Assembly (NCBI RefSeq): GCF_963921235.1
Contig: NC_086107.1
Coordinates: 113,710,001 to 113,774,000 of the forward strand
Length of the DNA stretch: 64,000 nt
Direction: 5' to 3'
Source of the DNA: Mobula hypostoma
Lineage: Eukaryota
This document shows positions 61,822 to 62,313 of this stretch, piece after piece. Within the stretch, counting starts at the first letter, position 1. Each line of letters starts with the position of its first letter. A model generated the notes under the pieces. The model made no database searches, was not told the DNA's origin, and saw nothing but the letters and a program-made list of their open reading frames with translations. The translations under genes and the position numbers were made by a program.

Positions 61822-62313
61822 CGGTGGTCAAGTGGTCGGCGACTTAGGCCGGTTCCCCCACTGGATTTAGTCTGGTGAGGAGGGTGTGAGGACACCCAGC
61901 AGGACCTGATAAAAACAAGTCCTGACAAAGGGCGGATGAGCTCCTTGTGAGCCAACGGCCATCTTCCGTGGAAGAGACGAAAGCCTTACCATGTATCTAC
62001 GAATCGTACGCTATCTACCTAGTTAGAAGAGACATGATGAGCTTGGATGCTGCACCGTGTGCCTGGACCTGCCCAAGGCCTCCGCCTAAGGAAGGGCCGA
62101 GCTCGAAGAAGCAGCCGCGGCTGGAGGCCGACACGGCCTCAGGCTCGAGTTCGGCGGGGGTGGCGGCGGGCGGTGCCAAGGCGGCCAGCAAGAACAAACT
62201 GGAGGAGAGGCTGTACTCGGTGCTGTCGCAAGATCGAAGAAGATGGAGGTGCATAGCCACCAACCCCAGAATCAGGACGGCACCCGCTGACTGACTGACT
62301 GACTGACTGACTG
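61822..62313 (+). mobile_element. Short non-autonomous RTE-derived retroelement carrying host gene cargo
   Basis: Perfect TSD acatactttg at 61812-61821 and 62314-62323, a (CTGA)n tail, and an RTE C-terminal remnant VRRDMMSLD...SQDRRRWR split by the cargo. Confidence 0.75.
62048..62225 (+). pseudogene. ZFTRAF1: Circularly permuted fragment of ZFTRAF1/CYHR1 5' coding sequence inside a retroelement
   Basis: 62048-62084 encodes [12 protein letters not shown] and 62085-62225 encodes [14 protein letters not shown]...[10 protein letters not shown]. The native protein order (recalled) is [25 protein letters not shown]. Confidence 0.85.

Follow-up and report, generated by a model that had tools for sequence, protein, structure and literature searches.

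Positions 61821-62314 of the window, the whole 64,000-nucleotide stretch of Mobula hypostoma DNA that was analysed, are very probably a 5'-truncated copy of a retroposon whose family founder had acquired a piece of the host gene ZFTRAF1 (CYHR1), most likely via RNA. The piece stands in the element in circularly permuted order, and the permutation arose in a single event that dates back to the family's founder, not at this locus.

A fragment of ZFTRAF1 is circularly permuted in the element

Translation of the window revealed a ZFTRAF1-like peptide that is split within 62048-62227, one segment lying in frame 1 from 62048 and the other in frame 2. The initial annotation held that these segments are contiguous in the native protein, that the DNA is a circularly permuted 178-bp fragment of the gene, and that its two halves, adjacent in the source, should appear on alignment to the host locus as two adjacent matches in swapped order. 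All of this was borne out. A word-indexed protein search of longer proteins, with the frame-2 peptide as the query, returned three batoid-fish proteins, all named ZFTRAF1/CYHR1, in each of which the peptide is one uninterrupted run, and exon 1 of the host gene agrees with them.

The majority-rule consensus of 79 unique copies of the family was aligned to the host locus. Consensus positions 314-353 matched host exon 1 as block A and positions 354-491 as block B (E 6e-15 and 5e-67, respectively, in this single comparison), and 175 of the 178 nt of both blocks together were identical. In the host, block B lies directly upstream of block A and their coordinates abut exactly (1646-1783 and 1784-1823 of the oriented locus), whereas the element has A and then B. 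The two-block swapped match is not a product of chance. The element contains 178 contiguous host nt, exactly circularly permuted, every base being there once. In terms of the host sequence, the opening point lies at ...GTGCTGT|GCTGCACC..., and the closure joins ...CCGTCTA to AGGAAGGG....

The boundaries first proposed needed revision. According to the family consensus, the module extends from 62049 to 62226 rather than from 62048 to 62225, and its closure junction falls at 62088|62089 (...CCGCCTA|AGGAAGGG...) and not at 62084/62085. Joining the end of the fragment to its start does restore the native order, as had been claimed, but the T at 62048, taken as the leading base of 'TGC' in that joining, results from CpG decay: the consensus has C, and the 76 copies with a base at this position comprise 61 with C, 14 with T and 1 with G. 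The T is a copy-level CpG-to-TpG change inside a CpG. The last codon of block A is partial, and the block ends 4 nt short of the 5' splice site of exon 1. The host breakpoint ends, ctgg|AGGAAGGG and CCGTCTA|ccag, make a blunt join with one mismatch and no common repeat, and the CCG microhomology suspected at the internal junction is absent. The module is 178 nt long and CpG-rich, derives from a 5' exon and has a GC content of about 0.70-0.72.

The source is exon 1 of the host gene

To locate host ZFTRAF1, the Pristis protein was run against the assembly in a tblastn-type search, which gave four exon matches on one contig (C5), alongside about a hundred family copies. The gene spans ~158 kb (C5, about 227.93-228.09 Mb, loci L021-L024), of which ~91 kb is the first intron, from exon 1 (L024) to exon 2 (L022). 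Exon 1 is the first coding exon, unbroken from the ATG to ...PKASVYQ and then followed by gt, and unlike in the element, the 178 nt are contiguous in it. The 22-mer across the native junction occurs once genome-wide, in ZFTRAF1 itself. Neither a tandem duplication nor the swapped (B-A) order, the two arrangements that had been named as grounds for rejecting a permutation, is present in the source gene. In roughly 3.3 kb around exon 1 (loci L024 and L031), no tandem copy was found, nor any further match to the rest of the element. The module peptide is nearer to the host's ZFTRAF1 than to that of Pristis, Leucoraja or Amblyraja, suggesting that the capture took place in the host's own lineage. 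The ZFTRAF1 piece is the only one of the four modules of the element whose source was traced.

The fragment is a module of a dispersed repeat family

A DNA search of the 3.48-Gb assembly with positions 61800-62320 as the query gave 2261 first-look candidates. When the best 40 of these 2261 were scored, the 39 besides the window copy were 90-94% identical to it, lay on many contigs and covered the query from ~22 to ~500, that is, the window from 61821 to about 62300. The 21-mer spanning the closure junction has 227 exact occurrences in the genome (100 forward and 127 reverse), compared with 0 for the reversed control. The family comprises ~2000 dispersed copies that stem from one founder burst. 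The swapped ZFTRAF1 stretch was present in 20/20 of the first 20 aligned loci, in which the homology extends upstream and to the (CTGA)n tail and the flanks are unrelated.

The three junctions of the gene piece (module 2|A, A|B and B|module 4) are each kept, at no more than 3 mismatches per 12-mer, in 76 of the 79 copies, and the 3 copies without them are deletions or truncations; every copy among the 79 that is long enough to contain the gene module has it. Because these junctions recur in dispersed copies, both a local integration and an assembly chimera are excluded. The initial annotation had described a free-standing insert, left by a small circle that integrated at this locus, and had itself listed an assembly chimera as a possible refutation. 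Copy number disposes of the chimera, and it also changes the picture of the insert, which is an internal module of a retroposon, with repeat modules bordering it on both sides and its exact closure junction spread over the genome.

The consensus consists of module 1 (1-172, with about 14 nt further 5' in real copies), an A-run (A8, 173-180) whose length differs among family copies, module 2 (181-313), the ZFTRAF1 blocks A and B (314-491), module 4 (492-551) and a (CTGA)n tail. A full-length element measures ~566 bp plus (CTGA)n, and its shared 5' end lies ~100 nt upstream of the start of the window copy. The 79 copies make up a graded series of 5' truncations that begin anywhere between consensus positions 1 and 365, and target-site duplications of 7-13 bp are seen at many of them. 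In 357 kb of sampled sequence, all runs of (CTGA)3 or longer (78/78) end family copies.

Divergence from the consensus at non-CpG sites is 2.2-3.2% in every module (A-run excluded), with a per-copy median of 2.8%, and at CpG sites it is 16-21%, indicating that the ~9% overall difference between copies is mostly CpG decay. The modules are equally old, and therefore the gene piece was already in the founder. Module 2 has only 6 CpG in its 133 nt, and its best 40 genome matches, all of them family-like, are 98-100% identical over the module. Since the CpG-rich modules look far more diverged than module 2, overall percentage identity overstates the age of the family.

Structure of the window copy

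The copy in the window (locus L001) occupies 61821-62314, a 494-bp, 5'-truncated unit that is without the 5' arm of the terminal hairpin described below. Its parts are listed in Table 1. The target-site duplication flanks the whole 494-bp unit and not the 178 bp of the gene piece. The duplication called by script for this copy is ACATACTTTG, in which the additional terminal A and G could also be assigned to the tail and the element. The 5' truncation together with the 8-bp target-site duplication indicates that the window copy arrived by retroposition.

Table 1. Parts of the retroposon copy and its target site, in window positions
Feature	Position	Strand	Basis
Left target-site duplication (catacttt)	61813..61820	+	Same 8 nt at 62315-62322
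Module 1 remainder, consensus position 87 onward	61821..61908	+	Family alignments
Internal A-rich run (consensus A8, 173-180)	61909..61915	+	Alignment; consensus
Module 2 (consensus 181-313), CpG-poor	61916..62048	+	Consensus; genome matches
ZFTRAF1 block A	62049..62088	+	Host exon 1 GCTGCACC to CCGTCTA, 39/40 nt; translation
ZFTRAF1 block B	62089..62226	+	Host exon 1 AGGAAGGG to GTGCTGT (codons EGPSS...), 136/138 nt
Module 4 (consensus 492-551), 3' unit before tail	62227..62286	+	Family alignment; consensus
(CTGA)7 microsatellite tail	62287..62314	+	Sequence
Right target-site duplication (catacttt)	62315..62322	+	Directly after tail

Just upstream of the element, positions 61704-61821 match L005:2697-2814 at 81.5% over 119 nt and belong to an older repeat. 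As this flank is itself a repeat, the retroposon landed in or beside an older repeat.

Class of the element

The element is a composite, SINE-like, non-autonomous non-LTR retroposon: its copies are numerous and dispersed, have different flanks, carry target-site duplications, end in a simple-repeat tail and form a 5'-truncation series. A SINE in the strict sense has a head derived from tRNA, 7SL or 5S RNA and an internal Pol III promoter. ARAGORN at a relaxed threshold reported 0 tRNA genes in five loci and the consensus, and a search of four loci against Rfam at E<=1 gave 0 matches, with no tRNA, 5S or 7SL head and no hammerhead motif of the retrozyme-like kind. From these results, a head of the strict SINE type was not detectable. 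All that was seen of a Pol III promoter is a loose match, GGTCGAGTGG, that we take to be box-A-like; it lies at consensus position 92, ~100 nt in from the 5' terminus.

We also searched for possible relatives of the element. No LINE that shares the 3' unit and could serve as a partner came to light: all (CTGA)n tails in the 357 kb of sampled sequence belong to the family itself. No 3' unit without the gene piece was seen with a 3' 100-nt query, whose 39 best non-self matches all extend into block B. A pattern search for an 'empty' element, in which module 2 directly adjoins module 4, gave 0 matches; the search depends on two intact 12-mers and would overlook a precursor family that is small or diverged.

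In full-length copies (for example, L075:1500-1611), the 5' end is a long fold-back hairpin that spans consensus positions 1-106. Its arms align over 44 nt with 33 matches in the consensus, and the window copy has only the 3' arm, at ~61821-61845. All 11 differences between the arms are transitions (11/11), 10 of which keep a G-U wobble (7 C>T and 3 A>G). Possible causes of this pattern are selection for an RNA stem, directional editing (ADAR- or deaminase-like) of the RNA or cDNA of the founder, and snap-back copying by a reverse transcriptase. In one copy, 14 nt of the 5' terminus match block B in inverted orientation; this match depends on changes specific to that copy and was dropped as chance.

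Origin of the permuted module

Both ends of the captured piece fall on the same point of the host sequence, which argues for a topologically circular template that was traversed or opened exactly once. Since the source lies wholly within one exon, with no spliced junction or intron, the sequence reads the same whether that template was RNA or DNA. Several features nevertheless hint at an RNA-level route. The mosaic build of the element includes an internal A8 run that follows module 1, the pattern search yielded 0 'empty' elements, and the closure is blunt, without microhomology. The 5' end is a fold-back hairpin, and such hairpins are typical reverse-transcriptase products. The opening point CUGU|GCUG falls at the centre of a 6-nt hairpin loop in the predicted fold of the host RNA, whose z-score is a modest -1.85; this fits the RNA route, although it is suggestive only. 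In the same kind of prediction for the 178 host nt, the two ends are not paired together, so a structured linear RNA with apposed ends gains no direct support from it. The junctions have neither non-templated bases nor microhomology and hence bear no signature specific to reverse transcription.

As the most likely founder route, we propose reverse transcription with template jumps on a circular or end-bridged RNA, to which we assign roughly one half of the probability. Along this route, a LINE-type reverse transcriptase would have built a mosaic cDNA by jumping from the 3' unit to the gene piece, to module 2 and to an A-tailed module 1. The enzyme would have landed on a 178-nt RNA from ZFTRAF1 exon 1, either circular or with its ends bridged, copied one full turn, halted on meeting the start of its own product, and then jumped to the next template, leaving a unit-length permutation with neither overlap nor gap. 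In such a one-turn model, unit length would arise without trimming by a nuclease. The burst to ~2000 copies would have followed the acquisition of the ZFTRAF1 module by the founder, and target-primed reverse transcription would later have inserted the window copy, creating its 8-bp target-site duplication. The template itself may have been a covalently closed, exon-internal circle of 178 nt that did not arise by back-splicing (either an RNA made by an endonuclease and RtcB-type ligation, or microDNA), captured once and amplified ~2000-fold in the germline. We regard this as a real possibility, although somewhat short of an even one.

A DNA intermediate could have entered at the level of the founder, as a 178-bp microDNA or eccDNA from exon 1 that was joined into a break between modules 2 and 4 of the master retroposon. 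MicroDNA and other small eccDNA are characteristically ~180 bp long, GC- and CpG-rich, of 5'-exon origin and flanked by microhomology. The fit to microDNA put forward in the initial annotation holds for the size of the module, its GC content of about 0.70-0.72 with many CpGs and its 5'-exon origin, and fails for microhomology, which the source breakpoints do not have. Exactly one turn with a single opening point, and a source bearing no RNA-specific mark such as a spliced junction, also agree with a DNA circle. On the other hand, that 0 bases were lost or added at the three junctions is unusual for two end-joinings and a closure, modules 2 and 4 were nowhere found adjacent (by the weak pattern test above), and the carrier, with its internal A-run and fold-back 5' end, looks assembled by a reverse transcriptase. 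Overall, we consider this origin unlikely, though it deserves to be kept in view. Integration of a small DNA circle at this very locus, with the window fragment as its unique footprint, would account for the permuted order alone, and deserves practically no credence: the closure junction has its 227 exact occurrences and the junctions are kept in 76/79 copies, both flanks of the fragment are repeat sequence common to all copies, and the duplication surrounds 494 bp rather than 178 bp.

A canonical back-spliced circRNA of ZFTRAF1 might have been reverse-transcribed in the manner of circRNA-derived pseudogenes, and the mouse circRFWD2 pseudogenes show that a non-colinear junction can be amplified along with a retroelement (PMC4897178). 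Both ends of the junction here, however, lie inside exon 1 and not at exon boundaries, as the initial annotation had suspected when it doubted a back-splice; the actual 5' splice site lies 4 nt beyond the 3' end. Before the 5' end stands GG instead of AG, and after the 3' end CC instead of GT, within an exon that is the first coding exon and continuous from the ATG, all of which makes a back-splice very improbable. An origin involving no circle at all is also conceivable, in which a B-A-B-A tandem duplication in DNA, or two independent captures, preceded a founder that kept only A-B. A tandem duplicate would indeed yield the same internal A|B junction, but for start and end to fall on the identical base would be a coincidence of about 1 in 178 with a tandem array, and far less probable still with two independent captures. 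Moreover, the native junction is present once in the genome, with no tandem copy in the roughly 3.3 kb around exon 1, and we judge this explanation improbable.

Comparison with known systems and significance

Chimeric retroposons and circRNA-derived pseudogenes are already known, and the permuted exon module described here is a variant of them. SVA-type composite elements are chimeric retroposons of a comparable kind. The module resembles microDNA in its size, GC and CpG content, 5'-exon source and implied circular topology; it differs in that flanking microhomology is absent, that it sits inside a retroposon instead of being a lone integration, and that the intermediate may have been DNA or RNA alike.

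Dong et al. 2016 (PMC4897178) recognised circRNA-derived pseudogenes by their reversed exon-exon junction and reported 33 high-confidence circRFWD2 copies, whose flanks are enriched for LTR sequence; as an alternative, the authors considered reverse transcription across an open, structured RNA with its ends close together. The family described here shares with these pseudogenes a many-copy fragment of a host gene, a non-colinear junction and an association with a retroelement. Different from them, its junction is exon-internal, involves no back-splice of exon ends and closes exactly one turn. Moreover, unlike circRFWD2, the fragment belongs, as a fixed module, to a SINE-like non-LTR retroposon whose tail is a microsatellite, and the fragment's copy number (227 exact junctions and 2261 candidates) is about two orders of magnitude higher.

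LINE template-jump chimeras include tripartite elements in Magnaporthe (PMC2104539) and U6/L1 (PMC4476161). Such chimeras resemble our family in having pieces fused head to tail within one pair of target-site duplications, an A-rich run between pieces and amplification in trans, and they differ from it in that one piece here is circularly permuted and that one of the four modules here has been sourced. Modular SINEs are represented by the families in SINEBase (PMC3531059) and by the 'jigsaw' SINEs (PMC4758252). The element is like them in being short and of high copy number, with a 3' unit and simple-repeat tail, 5' truncations and target-site duplications, and unlike them in having no tRNA-, 5S- or 7SL-related head and in having a central module traced to a host coding exon. 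In the open-access full texts searched, we found no description of a permuted host-exon module in a SINE-like family.

The present case allows the origin of the central domain of one SINE-like family to be read to the base, as a host coding exon that probably passed through a one-turn circular template. To our knowledge, for most SINE-like families the source of the central domain is not known. Should the template have been a true circle, the family would provide heritable evidence that germ cells contain small non-canonical circles able to seed the 'central domain' of a SINE-like element. In that event, it would also keep ~2000 copies of a junction that can be searched for in RNase-R RNA-seq or Circle-seq data from this ray and its relatives, and the existence of exon-internal circles in germ cells, used by LINE reverse transcriptases, would become testable. 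The case also carries a caution for genome scans, in that a rearranged gene fragment which seems 'unique' may be a module of a repeat.

Further observations in the window

A stop-free frame of 122 codons (61926-62294, + strand) extends from module 2 through the gene piece into module 4. About half of the family matches from a tblastn-type search of the host assembly have it intact, and the protein collection contained no relatives of similar length. The frame is probably a by-product of GC-richness and young age, and not coding.

Downstream of the element, positions 62699-62874 are an interspersed repeat (L001:2400-2575, ~76% identical to L004:3327-3511 on the opposite strand). Upstream of it, a direct repeat noted by eye, tgaggccRaggctgtgggcctgctccRg, is present at 61512-61540 and 61589-61616, with a spacing of ~77 bp.
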